Shown here: one piece after another, positions 13,915-27,630 of the stretch
Position numbering within the stretch: the stretch's first letter is position 1
Layout of the letters: every line of letters begins with the position of its first letter
Origin: Candidatus Aminicenantes bacterium
GTDB lineage: Bacteria > Acidobacteriota > Aminicenantia > Aminicenantales > JAFGBC01
Assembly: GCA_963702005.1 (NCBI GenBank)
Contig: OY969696.1
Location: 4,000,001 to 4,064,000, forward strand
Length of the DNA stretch: 64,000 bases
Direction of reading: 5' to 3'
The notes under the pieces: generated by a model
The model's input: the letters and a program-made list of their open reading frames with translations, nothing else
Told to the model about the DNA's origin: nothing
The model's database searches: none
Program-made: the position numbers and the translations under genes

Positions 13915-14081
13915 GGTTGTGACTCCTTTTCGATCATAGAAGGGAATTCGTTTTCGACTGGTTCGGCCCGCAGGCCCGATTTCGCCTCGACTTTCCCATC
14001 TCGCCACCGTGCGGGAGCATAAATTGAAGCTCAGAGCATGTCAAGGGCGGCTGGAGAGAGCGGAGAGACGGCTTGGAAAAT

Positions 14082-14138
14082 GAAATCCGTGAGAAAAGCG
14101 ACAACCTTCATCCGGCCGCCGCACTTGGGACAGAGCTC
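14082..14138 (-). mobile_element. Relic of IS91-like transposase C-terminal zinc ribbon
   Basis: Translates as ELCPKCGGRMKVVAFLTDF, followed by TTGACA-N17-TATGCT (14016-14044) and an ori-like CGAAAACGAATTCCCT (13941-13956). Confidence 0.6.
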
Positions 14139-14220
14139 ATCCTTGAATGACACGGCAGAAAACCGGTTTCACGATTCATGGTTCTTGACTTTTTTCGAGC
14201 GGGGACGATATGCTCTCCCC

Positions 14221-17052
14221 ATGAAAAAAACAACCCCTCTTGCCTGGCTTTTCTTGGCTTTCCTCTCCACCGCGTTGATCGTCTCCGCGGCCGCTCAGGT
14301 CAAGAATCCTTACTCCCCGGACACTCCCGAACCGGGGTCGGTCGAGGCGATCGCAAAATTCACAACCGAGGCACGCTTCGGCAACCCCTGGGTCGCCTAC
14401 GTGCCGGCGTCGGACACGGTGCCCTCACCAACGAAGTATCTCGGCCATGTCGTCGGGGCCGAAGGGGAGCTCTCGAGCACGGCCAAGATTTACGGCTACT
14501 TCCGCAAGCTCGCCGAAATCTCGCCGCGTGTCAGCGTTCAGGTCATCGGCCGGAGCGAAGAGGGAAGGGACATCCTCCTCTCGGCCATCGCGGACGAGGA
14601 AGGGATTCGCGATCTCGCGAGGTTCAAAGCGGCCACCGCCGCCCTGGCCGATCCTCGGAAAACCTCGCCTGAAGCCGCCGAGACTCTCATCGCGTCTGCC
14701 CGCCCGATCTATTACTTCAACGCCGGACTCCATTCGACCGAGACCGGCAGCCCGGAAATGGTCATGGAGCTAGCCTATCGCCTCGCCGTGTCCGAACAGC
14801 CGATGATCAAGAAGATCCGGAGCGAGGTCATCGTCCTCATCAACCCCGTCTCCGAACCCGATGGCCGCGATAAGGCCGTGGACTGGTTCTATCGTTACCT
14901 CAGGGGAAAGACGGATTTCGACCGCCTGCCGCCTGTCTCGCCCCCTTACTGGGGCCACTACGTCTTCCACGACAACAACCGCGACACGCACCAGCAGGCC
15001 CTCGAGCTGACGCGCGCCGTGACCCGGATGTTCTTCGAATTCCATCCGACCGTCATCCACGACCTCCACGAGTCCATCCCCCTCCTCCAGACCTGGAACG
15101 GCACGGGCCCGTACAACAACAACCTCGATCCGATCCTCATCAACGAGTTCTTCGAAATGGCCTTCGCCGAGATCGGCGCCCTGACCTCCATGGGCATGCC
15201 GGGCGTCTGGACGTGGGGATTCGGCGAGGGCTGGACTCACCATTACCTCGACTCGTTCGCCGTCAACCACAACAGCATGGGCCGCGGCTACGAGACGTTC
15301 GGGAATGCGACGGCCGAGACGATGGAGCGCGTCCTACGTCCGAACGAGGAGCGCTACGTCGGGCGGGCGGTCACGAGCCGGGAATGGTACCGGGCCCTGC
15401 CGCCGCCACGGAAGTTCCGCTGGTCGCTCCGCGACAACACGAATTACATGGAAAGCGGCTGCCTGGCCATTCTCGCTTACGCGTCCAAGAACGCGAAAGA
15501 GATGCTGCGCGATTTTTATCGCAAGGGCTACAACTCCTGGCAGAAAGGTGTCAAGGGAGGCCCCTTCGCGTTCGCCATTCCGGCGGACCAGGGGGACCGC
15601 AGGCGCGTGGCCCAGATGGTCAACCTCCTTCAGACGCAGGGGATCGAGGTCTCCCGGGCGTCCACGGGCTTCAAGGTCGAGGAGGGGGAGTTCGCCGCCG
15701 GGACCTATGTCGTGCGGCTCGACCAGCTCTACCGGAACTACGCCGTGGACCTGCTCCTTCCCCAGGAATTCCCGGCCGACACTCCTTACGAGCCCTATGA
15801 CGACGTTTCCTGGGCCCTGCCCGTCCACTACGGCCTCGAAGCCAAGCGGATCGATGACGCGAAAGTCAGGGACGTGCCGGTCACGCCGGTCCAGGCGGGG
15901 TTCGAACCCCAGGGCAAGGTCGGCGGAGCGGGACCCGTCTTCCTCATGAAAGACACGGGCCAGGAGGCGCTTCTGGCGCTCCGGAATCGCCTGGCGGCTT
16001 TTAAGGTCGAGATCGCCGAGAAGCCGTTCAAGTCGGGAGGCGTGGATTATCCGGCCGGGTCCTGGATCGTGATGGACGCAAAGGGACTGATGGATGCGCT
16101 GAACAGCGCCTCCGCCGAGCTGGCCGTGGATTTCGAGAGCGCGGCCGCCGTCCCCGAGGTTCCGCGACACGAGTCCAAGCTGCCGCGCCTCGCCGTCTGG
16201 CACACCTGGGCCGACACCGAGTCGGTCGGTTGGGTCCGCTACGTCCTCGACCGGGAGAAGATCCCGTATTCTTACATCCGCGACGACGATATCCGCGCGG
16301 GACGCCTCCGCGAGCGATTCGATATCATCCTCTTCGGCCACAACTATCTCGATCTCAAGGATCAGATCCACGGGATCGACAAGAAGTACGGGCCGATGCC
16401 CTACACGAAGACAAAGGAATTCCCGAGCCACGGGACTCCCGACGCGACCGACGACATCACGGGCGGGATCGGCTGGGCCGGCATGGCGAACCTCGAAAAG
16501 TATCTCGACGCCGGCGGGCAGCTCATCACGCTCGGCAACGGCTCGGCGCTGGCCCTCGACGGGGGGCTCGTCAGCGACGTCTACCGGAAATCGGGCGCTT
16601 TTTTCACGCCGGGCTCGGAGCTCAAGGTGAAGTTCGTGAGGCCCGACCATCCCCTGGCTTACGGCTACCCGGAGGTCACGTCGGCCTTCCGCAGGGGGAT
16701 GCCCGTCTATGATATCGCCGTCGCCGGCCGGCGCGGTGTCGTTCTCCAATGGGGCACAAAGCCCAGAACGGAGGACCGAGAGGAGGCGGAACCTGAAGCC
16801 GGCAAGCCGAAAGACGCCAAGGAGCAGGCAAGGAAGGATGAGGTCAAGATGCTCGTCAGCGGCGCCGTCAAGGGGGAAGACGACCTCGAGGGACGGCCGG
16901 CGATCCTCGACCTCCCGGCCGGCCGGGGCCGCGTCCTCGCTTACAACTTCAATCCGATCCACAGGGACCTGAACCGCTCGGACTACCGGTTCCTCTGGAA
17001 CGCGCTCCTCAACTGGAACGCCCTGCCGCCGGCTGAGAAAGCGGCTCGTTGA
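14221..17052 (+). CDS. M14 family zinc carboxypeptidase, secreted
   Basis: Signal peptide from ATG 14221, HSTE (HxxE), NP...PDGR, DNNRD and DLHE motifs, C-terminal GATase-like domain. Confidence 0.92.
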   Translation: MKKTTPLAWLFLAFLSTALIVSAAAQVKNPYSPDTPEPGSVEAIAKFTTEARFGNPWVAYVPASDTVPSPTKYLGHVVGAEGELSSTAKIYGYFRKLAEISPRVSVQVIGRSEEGRDILLSAIADEEGIRDLARFKAATAALADPRKTSPEAAETLIASARPIYYFNAGLHSTETGSPEMVMELAYRLAVSEQPMIKKIRSEVIVLINPVSEPDGRDKAVDWFYRYLRGKTDFDRLPPVSPPYWGHYVFHDNNRDTHQQALELTRAVTRMFFEFHPTVIHDLHESIPLLQTWNGTGPYNNNLDPILINEFFEMAFAEIGALTSMGMPGVWTWGFGEGWTHHYLDSFAVNHNSMGRGYETFGNATAETMERVLRPNEERYVGRAVTSREWYRALPPPRKFRWSLRDNTNYMESGCLAILAYASKNAKEMLRDFYRKGYNSWQKGVKGGPFAFAIPADQGDRRRVAQMVNLLQTQGIEVSRASTGFKVEEGEFAAGTYVVRLDQLYRNYAVDLLLPQEFPADTPYEPYDDVSWALPVHYGLEAKRIDDAKVRDVPVTPVQAGFEPQGKVGGAGPVFLMKDTGQEALLALRNRLAAFKVEIAEKPFKSGGVDYPAGSWIVMDAKGLMDALNSASAELAVDFESAAAVPEVPRHESKLPRLAVWHTWADTESVGWVRYVLDREKIPYSYIRDDDIRAGRLRERFDIILFGHNYLDLKDQIHGIDKKYGPMPYTKTKEFPSHGTPDATDDITGGIGWAGMANLEKYLDAGGQLITLGNGSALALDGGLVSDVYRKSGAFFTPGSELKVKFVRPDHPLAYGYPEVTSAFRRGMPVYDIAVAGRRGVVLQWGTKPRTEDREEAEPEAGKPKDAKEQARKDEVKMLVSGAVKGEDDLEGRPAILDLPAGRGRVLAYNFNPIHRDLNRSDYRFLWNALLNWNALPPAEKAAR

Positions 17053-17174
17053 AACCGGCCCGGGGTGTCGATATCACGGCCGGAAGCTTTTCTGCCGGGG
17101 GGAAGACTGCGGTTGAAGTGAAACGATCCCTCAGCTGCCATACTATTTTGGCACCTGTTTTAATCCTTGTTCTC

Positions 17175-18368
17175 CTAGGCGGATTCGAACGCTCGGGTGA
17201 GGTCGGCGATTAACTCTTGAGTATCTTCGATGCCCACCGAGTAGCGGATCAGCCCTTCGGGGATGCCCATCGCCTCGCGTTCCTCTACGGTGCATTCGAC
17301 GTGGCTCGTCGTCGCAGGGGGCCCGGCGATGGTCTCGACCGCGCCCAGGTTGGCGGCCCGGTGCGCCAGGCGGAGCTTGGGCAAGACACGTTTGACGGCT
17401 GCGGAGCCGCCCTTAAGCATGAAGCTCAGCACGCCCCCATAACCGCGCATCTGACGCCGGGCGATATCGTGATGAATGTGCGTTTCCAACCCCGGATAAA
17501 ACACGGCGGCGACGGCCGGATGGGTTTGCAGCCAGCGGGCGATGCGTAGGGCACTTTCGTTCTGCTGCTTGATCCTCAGGTGTAGCGTCTTCATCCCCCG
17601 GATTAGTAAGAAAGCCGCCATCGGGTCGAGGGTTGCCCCCGTGATCTCACGATAGTGATAGATGCGCTGAATCCATACGGGATCGCCGCAGACAACGCCA
17701 CCCAGCGCGTCTCCGTGACCGCCCAGGAACTTCGTTGCGCTGTGGATCACCAGGTCTGCGTCGAGGGCCAGCGGGTTCTGGTTGATGGGGGTGGCAAAGG
17801 TATTATCGGCCACCACGGTGGCCCCGACGCGGTGCCCGGCGGCGGCCAGCCGGGCGATGTCCATCACCTTGAGCGTAGGATTGGTGGGGGATTCCAGGTA
17901 GACGGCCTTGCAGCCAGGGGCGATGGCGGCTTCGATCTGTTCATGATCCGTCGTGTCGCAGAGGTCCACCCGGACGTTGAGGCGGGGCAAGAATTCTAGG
18001 AACAGCTTATTCGTGCCCCCATAGGTGTCCTTGATCGAGACGATTCGGTCGCCGGGCGAAAGCAGGGTGAACAGCGTGTTGCTGATGGCCGCCATGCCCG
18101 TGGCAAAGCTTGTCGCCGCCCGGGCGCCCTCGAGAAGGCGGACCTTGGTTTCAAATGCTTGTACGGTAGGATTGGTGTTGCGGGAATAGATGTGACCGGG
18201 CCTTCGGCCGAGGGCCACATCCAACCATGTGTCTACGTCGGGATAACCATAGGCGGCACTGTATACCACCGGCACCTGGGTCGCCCCCTGCACCAGGGAT
18301 TCCTCCTCGCCTCCCCACACGGACAGGGTGGCGGCCGAAATCTTGTTCACCGATGCGCGATCAGGCAT
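17175..18368 (-). CDS. Cystathionine gamma-synthase / Cys-Met metabolism PLP-dependent enzyme
   Basis: YSRNTNPT, ESPTNP, DNTFATP, HSATKFLGGH (PLP lysine), IRYSVGIED. Confidence 0.93.
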   Translation of the reverse strand: MPDRASVNKISAATLSVWGGEEESLVQGATQVPVVYSAAYGYPDVDTWLDVALGRRPGHIYSRNTNPTVQAFETKVRLLEGARAATSFATGMAAISNTLFTLLSPGDRIVSIKDTYGGTNKLFLEFLPRLNVRVDLCDTTDHEQIEAAIAPGCKAVYLESPTNPTLKVMDIARLAAAGHRVGATVVADNTFATPINQNPLALDADLVIHSATKFLGGHGDALGGVVCGDPVWIQRIYHYREITGATLDPMAAFLLIRGMKTLHLRIKQQNESALRIARWLQTHPAVAAVFYPGLETHIHHDIARRQMRGYGGVLSFMLKGGSAAVKRVLPKLRLAHRAANLGAVETIAGPPATTSHVECTVEEREAMGIPEGLIRYSVGIEDTQELIADLTRAFESA

Positions 18369-18459
18369 TTTTCTTTCTCCTCTTGAACCGAGCCGCATGA
18401 CGTATCGGATACCAATCATCCGCGAGAAATCCCGGCGATGTCAATGGAAATATCGGTTC

Positions 18460-18523
18460 AAAAAAATCCCCCTTATTCCCTTGAGGAGGGGGAAGAGAGA
18501 GGATGGTTTAAGGGGGATTGAAT
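18460..18523 (-). ncRNA. Candidate sigma-54-dependent small RNA (~64 nt)
   Basis: Starts about 12 nt after a -24/-12 promoter. 11-bp stem AAUCCCCCUUA/UAAGGGGGAUU ending in a U7 run, CU-rich interior, no ORF. Confidence 0.6.
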
Positions 18524-18533
18524 AAAAAAAAAT

Positions 18534-18549
18534 TGCAACTTTCATGCCA
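18534..18549 (-). promoter_or_regulatory. Sigma-54 promoter
   Basis: TGGCAT-GAAAG-TTGCA, matching the TGGCAC-N5-TTGCW consensus. Confidence 0.8.
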
Positions 18550-18620
18550 ATAGGGAGCCGGATTTTATTCCCTTTAGAAGACCGAGACAGGAGTGACCGA
18601 TGTTAAAAACTTCAGGGAGG

Positions 18621-18636
18621 GTAAAAAATGTTTACA
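18621..18636. promoter_or_regulatory. Putative enhancer (activator-binding) site
   Basis: GTAAA-N5-TTTAC palindrome starting 72 bp from the -24 element, the same spacing as the copy at 26353. Confidence 0.6.
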
Positions 18637-18690
18637 TCGGGGGGAGCGGCAAGAAGGGAAGGCCCCCCATTGCCGGCTGTCCGCCGCCGC

Positions 18691-19848
18691 TCAGACCGTA
18701 AGAAGTTCGTGGGAGCGAATGAGCCGCTCCCGGACCTTAAGGCCGAACGGGCAGGCTTTCTCGCAGGCGCCCCGGCAGGACCTGCAGTCGAGGGGCTTGC
18801 GGCCGGTCTCGAGCTCGGCGTAGTATCGGATGGCTTCCTTCTCCATCCCGTAGTCCTCGAAATACATGGCGTAGCGGAGGACCTCGTTGACGGCCACCCC
18901 GCGCGGGCAGGACGACAGGCAATCGGCGCAGCTGACCCGGCAGTAGCGGGAACCGGCCTCGCGCTGATAGCGGGCGATCGTCTGGAGGGCGGCCCGGTCG
19001 AGAGGCTGGTCGGAGGCGGCCAGATATTCCTCGACGTGGGCATAGCTGCTCATGGTCGGGATGCAGGTGTCGATGAGGGAGTTGCTCAGGACCCAGCGGA
19101 TGGCGGCTTGCGGGTAGCTGGTCTCCGCGTTGATCAGACCTTTGAGCCGCCCCTGCTGGTTCCCGGCGAAGACCTTCATGGCGACCGTCCCGATCCCCGC
19201 CTCGCGGACTTTCTGGACGAGGGGCTCGAGGGCCGGCCCTTCCATGTGGTTGTAGATGAACAGGACGACCTGGACGAAGGGCTCGGACAAAGCCTGGGCC
19301 AGAGTGAGCTTGGCGTTGTGGGTCGAGAATCCCGTGAAGCGGACCTTGCCGGCCTTCTTGAGCTCGGCGTAAGCGGCCTGGACCTCCTCGTTCTTGAGGA
19401 CGCCGAGGTCGCCGACGTTATGAATGAGGGCGACGTCGACATGATCGGTCTGGAGGCGCTGCAGGCTGGCTTCCATCCGGCGGATGATGGCGGCTCGATC
19501 CAAGTCCTTGGGAATTTGGAGGACGTGCTTGGTCGCGATGACGGCTTTGTCCCGGACCCCTTGGAGGGCTTGGCCCATAAAAGTCTCGCTCTGGGTCCTC
19601 AGGTAGCCTTCGGCCGTGTCGAAGTAGGTCACGCCGCAGTCGAAGGCGTAGCGGAGGACGTTGGGGTTGAAGAGGGAGATGGCGCCGCAGCTGACATCCG
19701 AGACCTTGAGTCCGGTCCTGCCCAACGAGTTGTATTTCCGGACCCGGGGCGGCTCCGCGTTTTGACCTAAGGCCGGGGCCCGGCCGGCCATGCCAAATCC
19801 CAATAAGCCGGAAGAGAACATGCCCAAGAAATTGCGACGGCTCGTCAT
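18691..19848 (-). CDS. Aldo/keto reductase with Tat signal and C-terminal Fe-S-type Cys motifs
   Basis: SRRNFL Tat motif, LGRTGLKVS, FDTAEGY, C-terminal C...C..C...CP clusters. Confidence 0.9.
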   Translation of the reverse strand: MTSRRNFLGMFSSGLLGFGMAGRAPALGQNAEPPRVRKYNSLGRTGLKVSDVSCGAISLFNPNVLRYAFDCGVTYFDTAEGYLRTQSETFMGQALQGVRDKAVIATKHVLQIPKDLDRAAIIRRMEASLQRLQTDHVDVALIHNVGDLGVLKNEEVQAAYAELKKAGKVRFTGFSTHNAKLTLAQALSEPFVQVVLFIYNHMEGPALEPLVQKVREAGIGTVAMKVFAGNQQGRLKGLINAETSYPQAAIRWVLSNSLIDTCIPTMSSYAHVEEYLAASDQPLDRAALQTIARYQREAGSRYCRVSCADCLSSCPRGVAVNEVLRYAMYFEDYGMEKEAIRYYAELETGRKPLDCRSCRGACEKACPFGLKVRERLIRSHELLTV

Positions 19849-19873
19849 CGACTATTTTCCTTTCACTGCTTAT

Positions 19874-20962
19874 TCACCGCTCGCGAAGACGGACGGCCAC
19901 GGGGCCGAGACCCTTGATTTTCTCCTTGATCGCAGCCGTCTCCTCGGGCGAGGGCATAAAGAACTCTATCCAAAGGACGTTCCCGCGCTGGGGATCGAAG
20001 GTCATGATCCGGGCGCCGGGCTGCCAGGCGTTGGCGCTGTCCGCTTCGCTGGCACGGGCGAAGAAGACCGCCTCCCGCTCCAGGTCCCCGATCCTCAAGG
20101 TCAGGCCCGCTCCCGAGGTCAATCCCGCCTTTTCGGCCTGCCCGGGGGTCCAGTTGGTGACGACGACGAAGCTCCCGCCCTGGTCGAGAAGGTTGAGGAT
20201 GTTGCCCTCGAGGACGCCGGCCGCGACCTTGACCTCTCCGGCATTGACCGCCGTCGTCGTGAAAAAGTCCCGGTCGAGGGGGACATCGAAAGAAACGTCG
20301 GATACCTCGGACAGGTTGCCGCGGCCTCCGACCAGAGACCGGAACCAGGATGAAGGCATCTTGACGCCCTGGAAGTCGCGGTAGGGTCCCATATCGAAAA
20401 ATTCTTCATAGCGGCTGCCGTCGGGATTGGTCCCGCGCAAGGCGACCTGGCGAAGAAGGCATCCGGCCGTGTCGAGGTCGAACTCGGCCGTCATGGGCGG
20501 AAGGGCCGCGCTGAGCCGGTAGAAGGACTCGGGCCCGAAGCGCCTGGTCCCTTCGAAGCGGAGGGCGGAGGCGAAGTTGCGGAGCGCGAAACAGCCGCCG
20601 AACAACTTCGCGTAGAGCGCAAAACGGGCTTTCTCGACGTCCGGGGTTTCGACCATCTCGTTGAGCCTGTTCCGGCGGATGAGATCACGGTCGACCAGAA
20701 TGACTTCGATGACGGCGGGCGGCAGGCCTTGGACGACGACCTTCATCGTCCCGGCCGGCGTGACATAGAAGACGTTTCCCCCCGCCGTAAGGGACAGATT
20801 CCGGAGCGAGGCCAGGCGCTCTTCCCCGCCGGCGGCGGCGACGTTCCGTTTCAGGATGTCAGAAACCGATACGACTGCTTGGCCCGGCCGGGCGAGGCCG
20901 AACGGAACCGCGGGGACGGCCAGGATCAGGAGGGTTGCCCAGACAATAGCGGACTTCCTCAT
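19874..20962 (-). CDS. Secreted hypothetical protein
   Basis: GGAGGT RBS, signal peptide, ILKRNVAAAGGEERLASL start typical of LolA-like fold proteins. Confidence 0.75.
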   Translation of the reverse strand: MRKSAIVWATLLILAVPAVPFGLARPGQAVVSVSDILKRNVAAAGGEERLASLRNLSLTAGGNVFYVTPAGTMKVVVQGLPPAVIEVILVDRDLIRRNRLNEMVETPDVEKARFALYAKLFGGCFALRNFASALRFEGTRRFGPESFYRLSAALPPMTAEFDLDTAGCLLRQVALRGTNPDGSRYEEFFDMGPYRDFQGVKMPSSWFRSLVGGRGNLSEVSDVSFDVPLDRDFFTTTAVNAGEVKVAAGVLEGNILNLLDQGGSFVVVTNWTPGQAEKAGLTSGAGLTLRIGDLEREAVFFARASEADSANAWQPGARIMTFDPQRGNVLWIEFFMPSPEETAAIKEKIKGLGPVAVRLRER

Positions 20963-21090
20963 CGAAACCTCCATGGCGGTCATTGTAGCGGATTCGTCGG
21001 CGGGGAGGAAGCCCTCGGACGAGCCGGCCTTCCCTTCCCGAGCGACCGGGGGCCGTCCTAGATTCCGATCCTGTCCCCAGGGGCCGGATC

Positions 21091-21204
21091 CTAACCTTTA
21101 AAGGAGTCGAACGAAAAAGGAACGGCTTTGCGCCGGACGGGATGGAGAGGAACGTATTTCATCCTCAGGAATTCCTCACTGAGGCGATCGACATCGGGTG
21201 TCAT
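21091..21204 (-). CDS. Candidate 37-aa small protein
   Basis: AAGGA RBS overlapping the upstream stop. Sequence MTPDVDRLSEEFLRMKYVPLHPVRRKAVPFSFDSFKG. Confidence 0.4.
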   Translation of the reverse strand: MTPDVDRLSEEFLRMKYVPLHPVRRKAVPFSFDSFKG

Positions 21205-21212
21205 GGCGTCCT

Positions 21213-21611
21213 TTAAGCGCTCCGGCCGGTCCGGGAATTCGACTCGAGCAGGCCGTCGATGGAGCGGTTGAAGGCCTGGAGGTCCAGCGGCTTGACGAAG
21301 AAATCGCTGATGGCCAAGCTCCGGACCTCCTCGCGGCGGATGAGGTCCGGGAAGGCCGAGATGAGGATGATCTTGCCCCGGTAGCCGGACTTCCGGAACT
21401 CGGCGATCATGTCCAGGCCGTTGGCGACGCCGTTCGCCCCGGGGAGCTTGAAATCGGCGATGATTAAATCCACGTCGGCCGTCCGGAAGCGGGCCAAAGC
21501 CTCCTGGACATCGCGGGCGAGGTAGACGAGATACTTCCGGCTCAGGATCAGGAAGAAAGTCTTCCGGATCGACTCGTCGTCGTCCACGACCACGATCCGC
21601 TTGGCATCCAT
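21213..21611 (-). CDS. Single-domain response regulator (receiver only)
   Basis: VVDDD, ADFKLPG phospho-Asp, ISAF and KP motifs. Confidence 0.88.
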   Translation of the reverse strand: MDAKRIVVVDDDESIRKTFFLILSRKYLVYLARDVQEALARFRTADVDLIIADFKLPGANGVANGLDMIAEFRKSGYRGKIILISAFPDLIRREEVRSLAISDFFVKPLDLQAFNRSIDGLLESNSRTGRSA

Positions 21612-21643
21612 ATCGCTTTTTTTCCTTTCCACGCTTCCTGAGA

Positions 21644-21659
21644 AGCCAGAATCGTGCCA
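21644..21659 (-). promoter_or_regulatory. Sigma-54 promoter
   Basis: TGGCAC-GATTC-TGGCT upstream of the receiver gene, with TTTACA half-sites at 21724 and 21732. Confidence 0.65.
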
Positions 21660-21753
21660 ACCCTGATGACCGGATTATCGGGGGAATCCGCCGGGGCCCG
21701 GCCGCGAGGAGCGCCGAAGATTATTTACAGGTTTACAGAAGGACGGGGGCACG

Positions 21754-23100
21754 TCAGGCGAGCTGAGAGAGGTCGATCTTGTACTCCTTGATCTTCTTGT
21801 CCAGGGTCGGGCGGCTGATTTGAAGGATCTGGCTGGCCCGGGTTTTGCTGCCCTTGGTCACGGCCAAGATGTGCTGGATGTAGCTCTTTTCGACGTCCTT
21901 GAGCGAGACGAGGTCCTTGGGAAAGACCTTTTTCTCGGCCGGCTCGAGCGGGAGGTTCTCCTTCTGGATGACGTCTCCCTTGGCCAGGATGACGGCCCGG
22001 GTCAGGGCGTTCTCAAGCTCGCGAACATTCCCCTTCCAGGGGAAATCGGCCAGGATCTTCATGACGTCGGAAGGGACCTTGCGGACGTTTTTCTTGAGGT
22101 CCCGATTGATCTTTTCCAGGAGATAGCCGACCAGGTCGGGGATATCCTCCCGCCGTTCGCGCAGGGAGGGGAGGTGGATCTCGACGACCTTGAGCCGGTA
22201 GTAGAGATCCTCGCGAAACCTTCCTTTCTCGATCAGGACGGAGAGGCTCTGGTTCGTGGCGGCGATGATGCGAGCCTCGGTCTTGAGGACCTTCTCGCCG
22301 CCGACCTTCATGAAGTCCCGGGTCTCGATGACCCGGAGGAGCTTGGATTGGAGGTTGGCCGAAACGTCTCCGATCTCGTCCAGGAACAGGGTTCCCTTGC
22401 CGGCGATCTCGAACTTGCCCCGCGTCTCGACGACGGCGTCGGTGAAGGCCCCCTTGACGTGCCCGAACAGCTCCGACTCGAGGAGCGTGTCCGTGATGGC
22501 CGAGCAGTTGATGACGATGAACGGTTCGTCCCGGAACAGGCTGTTGTAGTGGATGGCCTTGGCCACCAGCTCCTTGCCCGTCCCGCTCTCGCCCTGGATG
22601 AGGACGTTGGTCCGCGTATTGGCGACCGAGCCGATGAGCTTGAACACCTCGCGCATCGGCGCCGAGCGGCCGATAAGGTTGTCGATCGTGTACTCCTTCT
22701 GCATCTCCTCGACCAGATAATGGACTTTGTCCTCGAGCGAGCGGACCTGGAAGGCCTTGGCGATGGCCAGGTCGAGCTCCATGAAATCGAGCGGCTTGAC
22801 GAGGTACTCGAAGGCGCCGGCCTTGATGGCCTCGACGGTCGTCTTCATGTCGTCGAAGGCGGTCATGACCAAGACCAGGACCTTCTTGGTCCTGTCCTTG
22901 AGCTTGCGGAGGACCTCGAGCCCGTTCATGTCCGGGAGCCGGATATCGAGGATGACCAGGTCGGGCTGGATCTCGACCTGGCGGGCGAGGCCGTCCTCGC
23001 CGGCCGCGGCCAGATGAACCTCATAGCCCTGCTTGGCCAGGTGGGAGGTCAAGGTCCTCCCGACCAGGTTGTCGTCTTCGATGATCAGGATCGTTTTCAT
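21754..23100 (-). CDS. Sigma-54-dependent response regulator (NtrC/AtoC family)
   Basis: Receiver domain, GESGTGKE Walker A, ELFGHVKGAFTDA, LFLDEIG, WKGNVRELEN, Fis-type HTH. ATGA overlap with the kinase stop. Confidence 0.95.
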   Translation of the reverse strand: MKTILIIEDDNLVGRTLTSHLAKQGYEVHLAAAGEDGLARQVEIQPDLVILDIRLPDMNGLEVLRKLKDRTKKVLVLVMTAFDDMKTTVEAIKAGAFEYLVKPLDFMELDLAIAKAFQVRSLEDKVHYLVEEMQKEYTIDNLIGRSAPMREVFKLIGSVANTRTNVLIQGESGTGKELVAKAIHYNSLFRDEPFIVINCSAITDTLLESELFGHVKGAFTDAVVETRGKFEIAGKGTLFLDEIGDVSANLQSKLLRVIETRDFMKVGGEKVLKTEARIIAATNQSLSVLIEKGRFREDLYYRLKVVEIHLPSLRERREDIPDLVGYLLEKINRDLKKNVRKVPSDVMKILADFPWKGNVRELENALTRAVILAKGDVIQKENLPLEPAEKKVFPKDLVSLKDVEKSYIQHILAVTKGSKTRASQILQISRPTLDKKIKEYKIDLSQLA

Positions 23101-24554
23101 GCGTCCTCCTCGCCGGGCAGGGAGATCAGGAAGCAGCTCCCCCGCCCCCGCTTCTTGACGACCTTGATGACGCCGCCGTGCTGCTCGACGATCTTCCGGG
23201 CGTTGGCCAGGCCCAGCCCGAATCCGGCGGCTTTGGTCGTGAAGAACGGCTCGAAGATATTCTCCCAATCCTTGTCGGGGATGCCGCAGCCGTCGTCCCC
23301 GATCCGGGCCTGGATTCGCGTGCGCCCCTCCTCCCGGGTCCGCGACAGAATGATCCGGATTTCGCCCCCAGCCTCGACGGCCTCCAAGGCGTTGCGGAGG
23401 ACGTTCAGGAATACCTGCCGCATCTTGTCGCCGTCGACGGAGACGGCCGGCAGGTCCCCGGCCACGGACTTCTTGAGGACGATCCGCTTCTCCTCGAAGG
23501 ATTCGCGGAGGAGCTTGAGGGCCTCGTCCAGGACCGTCTCGAACGAGAAGCGCTCCTTCATCAGCTCCGAGGCCCGGGTGAAGCTCAGCAGCTCCTTGAT
23601 GAACTTCTCGATCTGACCGATCCCCTCCTGGGACAGGGCGATGTGCTCCCTTTCGACGGGGTCGAGCCGCTCGCTCTCCTGGATCTTCTGGATATTGAGC
23701 TTGACCGACGTCAGCGGGTTTCGGATTTCATGGGCGATCGTCGCGGCCAGCCGTCCGATCGAGGCCAGCTTCTCGGCCTGGACGAGCCGGCGGTTGGCGG
23801 CTTCCATCCGCTCCCGGGCTTGGAGGAGCTGGGCCGTCATCTCGTTGAAGCTCCGGGCCAGGTCGCCGAGCTCGTCCCGAGAGGCGAGGTTGATGCGGTG
23901 GGAAAAATCGCCCTTGGAGATCTGGACGGTGCCGGCCACGAGCTTCTTGAGGGGCCGGGTCACCCGGCGGGCGAGCAGGTTCGAAGCGATCAGGCCGACC
24001 AGGAACCCGCCCAGCCCGATCAACAGCAGGACGCGGCGGGTCCGGCGAACCTCGCGGGCCATGTCCTCCAGGGAATGGCCGATCTTGATCGAGCCCCATT
24101 TGGTCGGCACGCCCGAGGCGAAGATGGGAAGCTCGACCTCGAGGACGTTCTGGAGCTTGCCCCCGGTCAGGAGCGTCCGGGTCTGGAGCTCGTATTCCCC
24201 CTCAGCGACATCGGCCCGTAGGCCGGAGCGGGCGTAGATTTCGGGATAGGCCTGGATGGAAGCGTTGGCCGCCAGCGGTTTCCCGTATCGGTCGTAGATG
24301 ATGACATAGAGAAGGCGTTTTTCGATCTGTTCGTCGATCGTCTCCTGCATGGAGGCCGTGTCCCATTCCATAAGGGACCGCAGGTTGCGCGAGGCCAGGT
24401 ATTCGGCAATGATCAGGGTCCGGTTCTTGGTCTGCTCGAAGATCGTCCCGACCTCGCGCTTCTCGATGACGAACAGGACGGACCCGACCAAGACGGTCAG
24501 CAGGGCCGTGATCCAGGCCGCGAACCGCGTGTGGAGGGAAATCTTCCACTTCAC
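23097..24554 (-). CDS. HAMP-domain sensor histidine kinase
   Basis: Two TM with periplasmic loop, HAMP, AHEIRNPL H-box, N/G1/F/G2 boxes. Start is GTG 24554 or 24575. Confidence 0.95.
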   Translation of the reverse strand: MKWKISLHTRFAAWITALLTVLVGSVLFVIEKREVGTIFEQTKNRTLIIAEYLASRNLRSLMEWDTASMQETIDEQIEKRLLYVIIYDRYGKPLAANASIQAYPEIYARSGLRADVAEGEYELQTRTLLTGGKLQNVLEVELPIFASGVPTKWGSIKIGHSLEDMAREVRRTRRVLLLIGLGGFLVGLIASNLLARRVTRPLKKLVAGTVQISKGDFSHRINLASRDELGDLARSFNEMTAQLLQARERMEAANRRLVQAEKLASIGRLAATIAHEIRNPLTSVKLNIQKIQESERLDPVEREHIALSQEGIGQIEKFIKELLSFTRASELMKERFSFETVLDEALKLLRESFEEKRIVLKKSVAGDLPAVSVDGDKMRQVFLNVLRNALEAVEAGGEIRIILSRTREEGRTRIQARIGDDGCGIPDKDWENIFEPFFTTKAAGFGLGLANARKIVEQHGGVIKVVKKRGRGSCFLISLPGEEDA

Positions 24555-24564
24555 GTTCGTTCGT

Positions 24565-26190
24565 TCACCTTTCAAGCCAGACGTCTTTCGCGCTCAAAAA
24601 TTGCAGGCCGAGGGGCGGCAGCTTGACGTTCCGGACGAAGGGCTGGATGGACACCCGGCGCCGGATCGAGAACAGGGGCAGGACCGGACGCTCTTCGAGC
24701 AGGATCCGCTCGATGTCCCGGAACAGCTCGGTCCGCCGCGCCGAGCTCGGTTCGACTTGGGCCTTTTCGAGAAGACGGTCGACCTCGGCGTTGAAGTAGC
24801 CGATCATCCATTGATTGGCGATGGCCTTGGATTCGAACAGAGGCTGGATGATGTTCTCGGGGTCGGGAAAGTCCGTATTCCAGTCGAAGAACAGGAGGTA
24901 GGGCGTTTCAATCCTCTGGACGCTCGCCCAGTCCGAGACGGTCTGGAACTCGACCCTGATCCCCAGGGCTTCGAGCTGATCCTTGATCTCCCGGGACATC
25001 CTCTTCCGGTCCTCACGCTGGGTCCGGGCTTGGGCCACGGTCAGGACGGGGAGGTCGCGGGCGATGTCGATCCCGGCTTCGTCCAGAAGGGACCTGGCCC
25101 GCTTCGGGTCGTAGCCGTCCCGGTCGTCGATCGGGAAGAAGCCCGGGATCTTGACCGGGATGATGTTATTGGTGACCAGAGGGAGATAATAGGAGCCCGT
25201 GGCGGCCGCGGCCAGCCGGTTCTTGTCGATGGCCAAGGTCAGGGCCCGGCGTATGCGGGCGTCGTCGAGGGGAGGAATCCGGCAGCTGAAGGCGATGAAG
25301 CTAACGTCGAAAGATCCGTCCTCGACCACCTGGTAGGGAGGCTTGGACAACCTGTCCGAAAGACAGGGGAAGATGTGGACGTCCTGGCTTCGGAACTGGT
25401 CCTCCGTGAAGTGGGGGCTGAACTCCACGCCGTCCAGGTAAGCCTTCCGGCCGAAATAATCCTCGTTGCGATCCATCCGGATCCCGACGATATTGAGCTT
25501 GGGGTCCCTGATCCAATAGGCGAACTTGAACGGCCCGGTGCCCTGGGGCTTGAGGAAAAAGTCATCGCCCTGGGACAGGACGAGGTCGCGGGGCAGGATC
25601 TTGCAGAAGGACATGCAGAGGAGATAAAGCCCCGAGACGTAGGGATTCTTCCAATGGATCTCGAAGGTGGACTTGTCCTTGACGACGAAACCGGCGACGC
25701 CGTCGGCCCGTCCCTCAAAAAAATCCTGGGCGCCGACGATTCGGGGGAGGAAGTATTGACGGAACGTGGCGTCCGATTTTGGAGTGAGGAGTCTTTCGAG
25801 AGAAAATTTGACGTCATCGGCCGTGACCTCGGCCCCATGGTGGAACTTGACTCCGCGCCGGAGCTGGAAAGTGTACTTTCGGCCGTCCTCGGAAATGACC
25901 CAGTATTCGGCCAGGGCGGGAACGATATTGAGGTTGTTGTCGAGCCGGACCAGGCCGTCATAGATCTGCTCGAACACGAAAACATGACCCGGCAAGGCGG
26001 GGTCGAGCCGCGTATCGAGGCCGCTGGCAAAGGGCTTGATCCTCAGGGTGCCTCCCGTCCGCGGCCGATCCTCGCGACGGACGCCGGTCTGGGCCGCGAC
26101 CAAGGAAGATCCGAGGAACAGAGTCCCGATCAAGAACCAGGCCCCGATGCGCCGCCGTCGCTGGAATGACATGCCGACAGTCTTCACCAT
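24565..26190 (-). CDS. Family 5 (peptide/nickel-type) extracellular solute-binding protein
   Basis: LDPA, IYDGLV, PALAEYW.IS.DG..YTF.LR.GVKFH, GTGPFK, signal peptide. Confidence 0.92.
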   Translation of the reverse strand: MVKTVGMSFQRRRRIGAWFLIGTLFLGSSLVAAQTGVRREDRPRTGGTLRIKPFASGLDTRLDPALPGHVFVFEQIYDGLVRLDNNLNIVPALAEYWVISEDGRKYTFQLRRGVKFHHGAEVTADDVKFSLERLLTPKSDATFRQYFLPRIVGAQDFFEGRADGVAGFVVKDKSTFEIHWKNPYVSGLYLLCMSFCKILPRDLVLSQGDDFFLKPQGTGPFKFAYWIRDPKLNIVGIRMDRNEDYFGRKAYLDGVEFSPHFTEDQFRSQDVHIFPCLSDRLSKPPYQVVEDGSFDVSFIAFSCRIPPLDDARIRRALTLAIDKNRLAAAATGSYYLPLVTNNIIPVKIPGFFPIDDRDGYDPKRARSLLDEAGIDIARDLPVLTVAQARTQREDRKRMSREIKDQLEALGIRVEFQTVSDWASVQRIETPYLLFFDWNTDFPDPENIIQPLFESKAIANQWMIGYFNAEVDRLLEKAQVEPSSARRTELFRDIERILLEERPVLPLFSIRRRVSIQPFVRNVKLPPLGLQFLSAKDVWLER

Positions 26191-26265
26191 GATAATGAAT
26201 AATCAGGAAAAAAGCATCCTTTCCAAAATCCATAAACCACCGTTCTTTTCATCAGGACCTACAAA

Positions 26266-26281
26266 AGCAAACTTCATGCCA
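26266..26281 (-). promoter_or_regulatory. Sigma-54 promoter
   Basis: TGGCAT-GAAGT-TTGCT upstream of the binding protein / kinase / activator operon. Confidence 0.8.
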
Positions 26282-26352
26282 TAAAGGACTCCGGCCGGTC
26301 CCTGGAGATCGGCCGCAACATGAGGAAAATGAGATAAATAAGGCAAGGGAAC

Positions 26353-26368
26353 GTAAAGTTTATTTACA
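26353..26368. promoter_or_regulatory. Putative enhancer (activator-binding) site
   Basis: GTAAA-GTTTA-TTTACA starting 72 bp from the -24 element. Confidence 0.6.
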
Positions 26369-26397
26369 TATCCGGCCGTGGTAAAACGCTCCTTCGC

Positions 26398-27630
26398 CTA
26401 CCCGAATAGGACCTTGAGATCCCCGATCCGCTTCGCGATATCGACCCTGCGAACGCAGGTGGCGCTGCACTCCTGGCAAGACAAACAACCGGCCAAACCC
26501 CGATCCCGAGGAATGTTCTCGAGCGTCTGCCGGCACTGCCCAAAATTGGCGTAGACGGCCGCGTACATCCGGGCCCTCATCAGGCTTGGTATATCGGTTC
26601 CGCGGGGACAGGACGGTAGGCAGGAGCGACACTGGATGCAATAAGCAAGAGCGGCCGGGGACGTCTCTTTGAGGAAAGCGGCTTCCTCCGGCGTATAGTC
26701 GAGCCCCCCGGCGACGGACCAATCCGTATCGAGCTGGTCAAAGGTCGTGAATCCGGGGACGGCCGTCGCGATGAATTCATGACGGAGGGCCCACTTGAGG
26801 ACGGCCGTGTGGAGGATCGGGACTTCGTAGTACTTCTGCTGATCGCGGGGCAGTTCCTCCTTATACCAGTTCTGGGTGCACTGCGTCTTCATGGCGATGA
26901 GACCGATCCCCGCCGCGGAGGCGGCTTGCATGGCCGCCAGGAGGTCGCGATCCCCGGCCATGGCGTAGTTGAAAGCGGTCAAAACCACATCGTAGAACCC
27001 GTCGAGGCGCGCCGCCTCGAGGCATTCGGTCATACCCATGTGGGTCGAGAATCCGGCGAAGCGGATCCGGCCGCGCTTCTTGAGGTCGGACAGGGCGTCC
27101 CGGAACCCGGGATGGCGGATCTCCTCGGCCCGGCTGACGTCGTGGATGTAGAGGATGTCGACGGCGTCGGTCTGAAGGCGGACCAGGCTCTGTTCGGCCG
27201 ACCGGATGAACAGATCCTTCAAATCGGCGGCCGACAGGGAGCGCCGCTGCTCGCCCGGGATGAGAACCTTGGTCGCGATGACGGTCCGGTCGCGGACCCC
27301 GAGCTCCTTGAGGACCCGTCCCACCATCTGCTCGTTCCGGCCGCGGGCGTAGGCGCCGGCCGTGTCGAAGTGCCTCATCCCGACCTCGGAGGCCTTCCGG
27401 ACAAGCTCGGGGTTGTCCGCGTTCATAACCCCCATCGAGACGATCGGGAGCGTCAGTCCCGTCCGTCCCAGAGTCCGGGATAGGACGGGACCGGCCTTAT
27501 CCCGGGCCGGATGCGGGGTTCGGGTTTCGGCCCCCCGGGCCCAGCCGGCCGCCCCGGCGGCGGCCGCCGCCGCGCAGGCCGTTTTCGAGAAGAATTCGCG
27601 CCGTGTCATTCCTCGGGTCGGCGATGGCAT
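26398..27630 (-). CDS. Aldo/keto reductase with Tat signal and C-terminal Fe-S-type Cys motifs
   Basis: TRREFF Tat motif, LGRTGL, FDTAGAY, CIQCRSCLPSCP and CLSCQECSATC. Confidence 0.9.
   Translation of the reverse strand: MPSPTRGMTRREFFSKTACAAAAAAGAAGWARGAETRTPHPARDKAGPVLSRTLGRTGLTLPIVSMGVMNADNPELVRKASEVGMRHFDTAGAYARGRNEQMVGRVLKELGVRDRTVIATKVLIPGEQRRSLSAADLKDLFIRSAEQSLVRLQTDAVDILYIHDVSRAEEIRHPGFRDALSDLKKRGRIRFAGFSTHMGMTECLEAARLDGFYDVVLTAFNYAMAGDRDLLAAMQAASAAGIGLIAMKTQCTQNWYKEELPRDQQKYYEVPILHTAVLKWALRHEFIATAVPGFTTFDQLDTDWSVAGGLDYTPEEAAFLKETSPAALAYCIQCRSCLPSCPRGTDIPSLMRARMYAAVYANFGQCRQTLENIPRDRGLAGCLSCQECSATCVRRVDIAKRIGDLKVLFG

Follow-up and report, generated by a model that had tools for sequence, protein, structure and literature searches.

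What does the gap between two genes on the minus strand of a Candidatus Aminicenantes genome encode? The window, as we call the whole stretch of DNA analysed here, covers 64,000 nucleotides (assembly GCA_963702005.1, contig OY969696.1, positions 4,000,001 to 4,064,000). For positions 18460 to 18636 of this window an earlier note, made from the letters alone, had proposed an unannotated small RNA (sRNA) gene transcribed from a sigma-54 promoter and displaying a loop complementary to ribosome-binding sites. We followed up this proposal computationally. The observation was confirmed and its gene-level reading is supported by comparison between genomes; the support does not extend to the proposed mode of action, nor to the independent promoter assigned to the next gene, which encodes a pyridoxal phosphate (PLP) enzyme. 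Our reading is that a stand-alone sRNA is driven by the neighbouring two-component system and pairs most likely with purine-rich ribosome-binding regions, and we hold this to be moderately probable.

Along the minus strand the locus begins after the stop codon (18691) of an aldo/keto-reductase/Fe-S gene and continues with a palindrome, the promoter TGGCATGAAAGTTGCA, a T-rich stretch and the RNA. From about 18523 the RNA reads AUUCAAUCCCCCUUAAACCAUCCUCUCUCUUCCCCCUCCUCAAGGGAAUAAGGGGGAUUUUUUU, and its 3' limit is 18460. The features are as follows.

18621..18635, no strand assigned: candidate upstream activator site, palindrome GTAAA-N5-TTTAC, 86 nt (first base to first base) 5' of the promoter.
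18534..18549, minus strand: sigma-54 (-24/-12) promoter TGGCATGAAAGTTGCA, a consensus match, with rpoN in the genome and 15/16 positions identical in the congener.
18460..18523, minus strand: predicted 64-nt small RNA, its 5' end placed by the -12 element and its 3' end by the U-run.
18509..18519, minus strand: 5' arm of the predicted outer (terminator) stem, AAUCCCCCUUA, invariant in the congener.
18481..18508, minus strand: pyrimidine-rich tract AACCAUCCUCUCUCUUCCCCCUCCUCAA, made up of a 14-nt bulge, the inner 5' arm and a 9-nt loop.
18465..18475, minus strand: 3' arm of the predicted outer stem, UAAGGGGGAUU, with one U to C change in the congener.
18460..18466, minus strand: U7 run of the intrinsic terminator, seen in the sequence, where conservation with the congener ends.

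The palindrome named in the earlier note is present as GTAAA-CATTT-TTTAC at 18635-18621, and the proposed -24/-12 promoter as TGGCAT-GAAAG-TTGCA at 18549-18534, with GG-N10-GC spacing and a predicted start near 18523. The 64-nt string given for the RNA is the exact minus strand of 18523-18460. For membership among sigma-54 promoters we found the GG-N10-GC spacing, a sequence of the TGGCAC-N5-TTGCW type, a candidate upstream activator site and an rpoN gene in the source genome (G000, 200 bits). The locus had been described as free of open reading frames (ORFs), which holds for conserved ones; a frame of 34 codons does span the RNA (18545-18441). This frame starts at an ATG inside TGGCATG, 5' of the predicted transcription start, and that ATG is CAC in the congener.

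Both motifs are rare. TGGCAY-N5-TTGCW matches twice in the window, where 0.01 +/- 0.10 matches are expected from 100 shuffles, and GTAAA-N5-TTTAC also matches twice (0.01 expected from shuffles). For each motif the two copies are the site at the RNA gene and the site before the two-component operon. Across the genome the palindrome is found six times with the N5 spacer and zero to one time at each other spacing from N0 to N11, and four of the six copies sit 59-81 nt upstream of a sigma-54-like promoter. Strict sigma-54 promoter matches number 27 in the genome. As judged by eye, most of these lie in A+T-rich gaps, 30-90 nt before ribosome-binding sites of the GGAGG type, and the genes behind them encode products that start like signal peptides. 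Sigma-54 seems to be heavily used for secreted or envelope proteins in this organism.

The two-component operon that shares both motifs has the following features.

26353..26367, no strand assigned: second GTAAA-N5-TTTAC palindrome, before the operon, conserved in the congener.
26266..26281, minus strand: sigma-54 promoter of the operon, TGGCATGAAGTTTGCT, a strict consensus match.
24565..26133, minus strand: family-5 solute-binding protein (peptide/nickel type), first gene of the operon (Pfam SBP_bac_5, 6.4e-70).
23097..24554, minus strand: sensor histidine kinase (HAMP, HisKA and HATPase_c by Pfam), with AtoS as best NCBIfam model, below its cut-off.
21754..23100, minus strand: NtrC-family response regulator and sigma-54 activator (receiver, AAA+ and HTH_8), the putative activator of both promoters.

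For the binding protein the NCBIfam models of the Opp, Dpp and Nik proteins all score under their cut-offs, and for the activator the best NCBIfam model is AtoC, with 453 bits against a cut-off of 714 bits. The offset from palindrome to promoter is identical at the RNA gene and at the operon. The proposal that the RNA is an output of this system fits the sharing of the palindrome, at the same offset, with the operon promoter in two genomes; the congener (G001) likewise has palindrome and promoter before its binding-protein/kinase/activator operon.

The wider order was sampled with 151 genomes, whose families are labelled f1 (that of the window), f3, f4, f6, f7 and f9. Outside the window, the source genome holds two further sites with palindrome and sigma-54 promoter (C1:4223915-4224017 and C1:3027076-3027156; L193 and L194). 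One precedes the gene of a 901-aa M1-family peptidase, and the other a gene for an ABC-transporter ATPase. The M1 peptidase site is retained in G001 (two contigs), and in f9 genomes look-alike N-termini follow the same pattern. The RNA would be one arm of a regulon with four promoters, serving the activator's own operon, the M1 peptidase, the ABC transporter and the small RNA. Because the members are a peptide-type binding protein, an M1 peptidase and an ABC transporter, the theme of this regulon is probably peptide acquisition. In three f9 genomes (G017, G010 and G023; L185, L186 and L189) the pattern precedes a gene with an N-terminus that by eye is of the sigma-70-like, extracytoplasmic function (ECF) type. 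An ECF-type sigma factor downstream of palindrome and promoter suggests a regulatory cascade, and its gene may belong to the regulon in f9.

How far is the RNA gene itself conserved? BLAST of the 221-nt module against 40 relatives found it in one congener only, G001. In G002, of the same genus and 83% complete, BLAST gave no match to the module, and the contig with the activator stops at that gene. Identity with G001 is 13/15 in the palindrome, 40/71 in the spacer, 15/16 in the promoter (which reads TGGCAC there) and 58/64 in the RNA; after the T-run it falls to 30/91. Conservation is highest on the predicted functional parts and ends at the T-run. The RNA differs from that of G001 at six positions. 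Five of these are unpaired or belong to the tail, and the sixth change (U to C) opens the innermost pair of the outer stem. The inner stem is not preserved as such in G001. A 22-nt stretch, AUCCUCUCUCUUCCCCCUCCUC, is identical in G001 and in two metagenome contigs, which carry the G001 version of palindrome, promoter and RNA. Conservation of promoter and hairpin in relatives, on which the earlier note had staked its proposal, is seen in G001 and these two contigs. In the public pattern scans one of five genome-contig stretches and two of 16 metagenome stretches were true, the rest being unrelated C-rich repeats.

The genes around the module are not the same in the two lineages. In the window it is flanked by the aldo/keto reductase and by the PLP enzyme, a member of the cystathionine-gamma-synthase family (678 bits, above cut-off). 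In the G001 lineage a lactate permease lies upstream, where five genes separate the reductase gene from the RNA and the permease gene is nearest to the RNA, and an S9-type hydrolase lies downstream. This hydrolase has no match in G000, and the window PLP enzyme has only 33-34% identical paralogues in G001 and G002 and no orthologue. A conserved non-coding unit extending from the palindrome to the T-run is supported by this comparison.

Beyond the genus, orthologues of the activator with 70-93% identity are present in 135 of the 151 genomes. We read 20 regions of about 19 kb around such orthologues. A strict palindrome precedes the operon in 17 of them and a sigma-54-type promoter in 19. Downstream of the activator gene and on the same strand, 15 regions have an additional sigma-54 promoter; a conserved CU-rich run comes 19-138 nt behind it and is itself followed by a hairpin. 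This further arrangement was not seen in the other five regions, from f6 (2), f7 (2) and f9 (1). The palindrome followed after 50-80 nt by the promoter is found in 115 of the 151 genomes, usually one to three times, and the reversed control gave 0.

The RNAs behind these promoters have at least three body plans, and the family as a whole is present in roughly half of the genomes sampled. Type A, in f4, consists of UUCCCGAUACCCUUCCAUAACCCUCCUUCUUUUUGUUCC and a G+C-rich hairpin (19 sequences). RNAalifold predicts 10 pairs for it, one with a compensatory change (9 C-G, 8 U-A). The type A covariance model matches 44 of 44 f4 genomes, mostly once each, and 25 of the 27 strongest matches are on the contig and strand of the activator, just downstream of its gene. 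Across the f4 genera, 38 nt of single-stranded sequence hardly vary. Type B, in f3 and f9, has a small 5' hairpin followed by ...CAACUCUCUUCCUUUCAGUGGGGAGGCG, a variable loop, CGCCUCC and a U-run. Its motif has one copy each in 29 of the 151 genomes (24/27 in f3, 4/6 in f9 and 1/20 in f7; control 0). Of these 29 matches, 22 share contig and strand with the activator gene and follow it; the remaining seven come from fragmented assemblies, where they are on a different contig, or from a genome without a listed activator match. The RNAalifold structure of the f3/f9 alignment was misaligned and unreliable, and was set aside. For 10 loci covering the three RNA types Rfam gave 0 matches at E <= 0.1.

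The third type is that of the window. A covariance model built from its two sequences finds only the locus itself in its own genome, and among the 151 genomes it matches strongly in G000 and G001 only. The next 18 loci are ordinary terminators at gene ends, 0/18 of them with a sigma-54-like promoter within 200 nt. With the type B RNAs of f3 the window RNA has a short identity, CUCUCUUCC, seen by eye only. It fits the order-wide type by its palindrome, sigma-54 promoter, position and strand downstream of the activator, composition and terminator, and may be regarded as the f1 version of a family defined by context, with descent left aside.

Some variants were noted among the type A relatives. 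In genus g19 of f4 (L159-L173) the RNAs are about 275 nt long; they contain a GGGGAGGGAGA...UCUCCCUCCC hairpin and a tail in which GCCCUUCUUU units are repeated ahead of the terminator. The type A model matches them weakly (E ~1e-5) at the syntenic place. Longer type A RNAs (L177 and L178; G125 and G145; L156 and L157) have an extra 5' hairpin with compensatory changes (GCACCUUGAGGG.../...CCCUCGAGGUGC vs GCACCCCGAGGGA.../...UCCCUCAGGGUGC). In two genomes these longer RNAs contain an ORF of 16 codons with a GGAG Shine-Dalgarno site (MADRKTKRSTHPEGRK and MADIKGKRSAHPEGWK), the frame of which is not preserved relative to the conserved CU motif in other members.

Three further observations concern the genes near the operon and the RNA. 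Directly after the activator gene, at 21644-21659 on the minus strand, is a sigma-54-like promoter, TGGCACGATTCTGGCT, with one mismatch in the -12 element. It precedes the gene of a 132-aa stand-alone receiver domain (21213-21611), and TGTAAAC/TGTAAAT half-sites are found around 21725-21737. Most of the 20 orthologous regions likewise have a promoter about 100 nt past the activator gene and, behind it, an ORF of receiver size (about 135 aa), whose receiver identity was confirmed only in G097. The cluster is flanked by paralogous aldo/keto-reductase genes with a C-terminal 4Fe-4S dicluster domain (26398-27630 and 18691-19848, both minus strand), of which a congener-lineage contig has a homologue (L052:609-1823). 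On the plus strand, convergent to the PLP-enzyme gene, 14038-17052 encodes a 1004-aa protein with an M14 zinc-carboxypeptidase domain, another peptide-degradation gene at this place.

What kind of RNA would be made? The fold drawn earlier, with an 11-bp outer stem (AAUCCCCCUUA/UAAGGGGGAUU), an inner stem UUCCC/GGGAA and U7, reappears in the minimum-energy fold of the 64-nt RNA (-20.2 kcal/mol), which has a 14-nt 5' bulge and a 9-nt loop CCUCCUCAA preceded by CCCCC. Bulge and loop are unpaired with a probability of at least 0.9 in the ensemble. The tract has 24 pyrimidines among its 28 positions, and its two anti-Shine-Dalgarno-like CCUC(C) motifs are both in unpaired regions. The RNA is predicted to form one compound hairpin that doubles as its terminator: an 11-bp stem with 5 G-C pairs is followed by U7, as in intrinsic terminators. 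A simple terminator scan missed this hairpin because of its loop limit (3-8 nt). In Rfam 15 no family was matched: the best match on the RNA strand had at most 16.6 bits and an E-value of at least 0.45, and the Betaproteobacteria toxic sRNA RF02278, of which the RNA is not a member, scored 14.6 bits (E = 7.4) against a gathering threshold of 50 bits.

In the mechanism proposed here, the NtrC-family activator encoded 3.2 kb upstream would bind the GTAAA-N5-TTTAC palindrome and fire the sigma-54 promoter at 18549-18534. Transcription would start near 18523 and stop at the 11-bp stem and U7, giving an RNA of about 64 nt, and the 28-nt pyrimidine tract would be held open inside the terminator hairpin. 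The tract would most likely pair with the purine-rich ribosome-binding regions of a subset of mRNAs and lower their translation. All of this is predicted from the sequence rather than observed: that the gene is transcribed, where the RNA begins and ends, that the activator binds the palindrome, and how the RNA pairs. Three Nanopore metatranscriptome runs of the same sample or study placed 0 contigs on 17000-27000, which has no bearing on expression either way. The 3' end of the 16S rRNA of the genome reads GGAUCACCUCCUUUC. CU-rich cores resembling this tail are CCCUCCUUCUUU, CUCUUCCUUUC and CCCUCCUUUC (f9), and CCCCCUCCUC in the window, and all three RNA types appear to expose a near copy of it. 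An Hfq-like gene is present (29.4 bits, cut-off 27).

The following results weigh against the reading of a stand-alone, pairing sRNA. The fold energy is ordinary (z = -1.18; 26 of 200 shuffles fold equally well), and since it is not unusual for the composition, structure alone proves nothing. Covariation in the stems, to which the earlier note had looked, did not appear, as only two distinct sequences of the window type exist, with 0 compensatory changes between them. The RNA body cannot be aligned with types A and B, and the type A model and the nhmmer profiles of both types, the latter run against the whole genome, miss the locus; common descent therefore rests on position, promoter and composition. 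Several type A terminators are without a good U-run. In G001 the ATG of the hydrolase gene is 28 nt after the T-run, with no room for a promoter of its own. Target prediction yielded no specific partner: with RNAduplex on 3195 start regions the best value was -39.7, compared with -37.5 +/- 2.9 for 30 composition-matched shuffles, and the 20th best was -31.9, compared with -30.2 +/- 1.1.

The block of translation by pairing to Shine-Dalgarno sequences has accordingly to be divided: complementarity exists in principle and the tract is unpaired in the predicted fold, but the duplex scan is no better than shuffles. Such pairing is plausible as the mode of action. Exact complementarity of 11-14 nt gave two candidates overlapping a start codon. 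Candidate C1:1557034 was dropped because it has no clear orthologue in G001, and C1:780277 because its G001 orthologue keeps the purine-rich leader and loses the pairing register.

The main rival to pairing is titration of a protein. The RNA would then be real and controlled by the two-component system, and would soak up a CU-binding protein, as CrcZ titrates Hfq/Crc, with no mRNA pairing. The architecture is like that of CbrAB-CrcZ, in which, according to PMC5113210, the RNA gene depends on RpoN and directly follows the activator gene. A platform for a protein would suit the near-invariant 38-nt single strand of f4 and the repeated GCCCUUCUUU motifs of g19, and no mRNA partner stood out in the duplex scan. 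However, no candidate CU-binding protein was identified, and CsrA was not found in the genome, which is 94% complete. CsrA, moreover, binds GGA rather than CU. The window RNA has only one short tract, and Shine-Dalgarno mimicry is the simpler explanation of its likeness to the 16S tail. We regard titration as unlikely. A wider proposal, which we find doubtful, is that the order-wide system uses a single-copy mimic of the 16S tail as a global post-transcriptional arm, a CbrAB-CrcZ-like master switch of peptide catabolism; the mimic would compete with ribosomes for Shine-Dalgarno sequences at large or titrate a CU-binding protein, and the RNA body would be rebuilt in each family while tail mimic and terminator stay.

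Pairing and titration both presuppose an RNA gene in its own right. Alternatively, the sigma-54 promoter could serve the downstream gene, here that of the PLP enzyme, through a leader with a leaky terminator, the short RNA being a by-product. In favour of this, both the window and the congener have the next gene on the strand of the RNA, in the congener after the short gap given above, and a ribosome-binding site further downstream could in principle be masked by the CU tract. The PLP-enzyme gene had been given its own promoter, TTGACA-N18-GATGAT. This site exists (18444-18415, 10/12), but it has no statistical support, as shuffles give 0.8 +/- 0.9 such sites per 3 kb and one site is at chance level. 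Leakage into the next gene of the window may occur, because the site is no better than chance, and in G001 some read-through is likely. Transcripts from the sigma-54-like promoter at 21659-21644 may also end at the terminator of the RNA; these would be comparable to the cbrB-crcZ co-transcript of Pseudomonas, as treated in part of PMC5113210.

Against a leader, the genes after the RNA are not orthologous: the product is the PLP enzyme in the window, but in G001 it is a hydrolase, in G106 a NUDIX protein, in G056 a Mur-ligase-like protein and in G019 and G097 a methyltransferase encoded on the opposite strand. The stand-alone transcript of the earlier note is in line with these unrelated neighbours and with the convergent gene in two genomes. 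With only 4 nt in front of the hairpin, an alternative antiterminator has no space to form. When the read-through RNA of the window is folded, the hairpin is kept as an independent domain, unpaired with the ribosome-binding site; read-through folds gave no significant long-range pairing, and the idea of masking in cis is unsupported. Among the 3195 start regions, that of the PLP gene comes 2177th in predicted pairing with the tract. Together with the stop of conservation at the T-run, the unrelated or convergent next genes, the lack of room for an antiterminator and the separate hairpin argue for an independent RNA gene and not a leader, which we consider quite unlikely.

That the hairpin is a mere terminator of the upstream receiver/hypothetical/reductase unit, with promoter- and palindrome-like motifs that do not function, is very improbable, for although the order has many terminators of the AAUCCCCC...GGGGGAUUUUUU type (the 18 gene-end loci matched by the window-type model are such) and transcription from the sigma-54-like promoter in front of the receiver gene (21659-21644) could reach this point, it leaves unexplained two rare motifs standing jointly at the offset of the operon promoter, their conservation in the congener despite a different upstream gene, and the recurrence of the same arrangement across the order.

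Does the stand-alone sRNA belong to a known class? The closest in the exposed motif are the cuckoo/alpha-r14 RNAs of Alphaproteobacteria (CcsR1-4 = RSs0680a-d, and NfeR1 = SmelC397). In the portions of PMC4615179 and PMC10746234 that describe them, these are trans-acting small RNAs with an unpaired anti-Shine-Dalgarno mimic, for which pairing with many ribosome-binding regions is proposed or shown. According to the same portion of PMC4615179 they have 2-4 adjacent hairpins, whereas the window RNA is a single one. Each cuckoo loop is described there with an exact CCUCCUCCC, which is absent from the 64 nt of the window RNA, where CCCCCUCCUC and AUCCUCUC are found instead. The cuckoo promoters are given in those accounts as dependent on RpoHI/II or LsrB, and that of NfeR1 as without a sigma-54 signature, in contrast to the sigma-54 promoter of the window RNA, which has no match in Rfam.

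In its genetic context the RNA is closer to CbrA/CbrB-CrcZ of Pseudomonas, where, according to PMC5113210, every genome of the group has an RpoN-dependent RNA gene immediately behind the activator gene. The likeness is an NtrC-family two-component system and an RpoN-type promoter with the RNA gene downstream of the activator, which in the window is judged by sequence and position. CrcZ is described there with several A-rich AAnAAnAA motifs for Hfq/Crc (PMC5113210), whereas the tract of the window RNA has none and is CU-rich. The window activator is not CbrB, its best NCBIfam model being AtoC, below the cut-off. CrcZ is roughly 400 nt long, compared with 64 nt here. In LuxO-Qrr of Vibrio and GlrR-GlmY of enterobacteria, an NtrC-family regulator and sigma-54 also drive a short regulatory RNA that ends in a terminator. 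The sequences and folds of Qrr and GlmY are unrelated to the window RNA, for which Rfam gave no match to them at E <= 10, and the LuxO model of NCBIfam scores 378 bits on the window activator against a cut-off of 800. RsaE/RoxS of Bacillota have C-rich unpaired motifs that pair with G-rich ribosome-binding regions. The UCCC loops of RNAIII are C-rich unpaired motifs as well, in the passage of PMC4615179 that mentions them. These Bacillota RNAs are like the window RNA in the C-rich unpaired motif and differ in phylum, fold and promoters, and no homology is expected.

The gene-level interpretation is well supported by the comparative sequence evidence. The RNA is a new family of a known design, that of a sigma-54-driven sRNA controlled by a two-component system, with a seed like an anti-Shine-Dalgarno sequence, and it is absent from Rfam. 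Aminicenantes are abundant, uncultured degraders of proteins and peptides, and a full-text search of Creative Commons papers in PMC and of bioRxiv preprints found no regulatory RNA described for them. The circuit now has defined parts and is as such open to study outside the organism: a sensor kinase that comes with a binding protein, an activator of the NtrC type for which a 15-bp site is predicted, a regulon of four promoters and an RNA family. The known design, a two-component system driving a sigma-54-dependent RNA beside the activator gene, extends well beyond Proteobacteria, and the locus adds an example of an RNA body that turns over within a conserved regulatory context.

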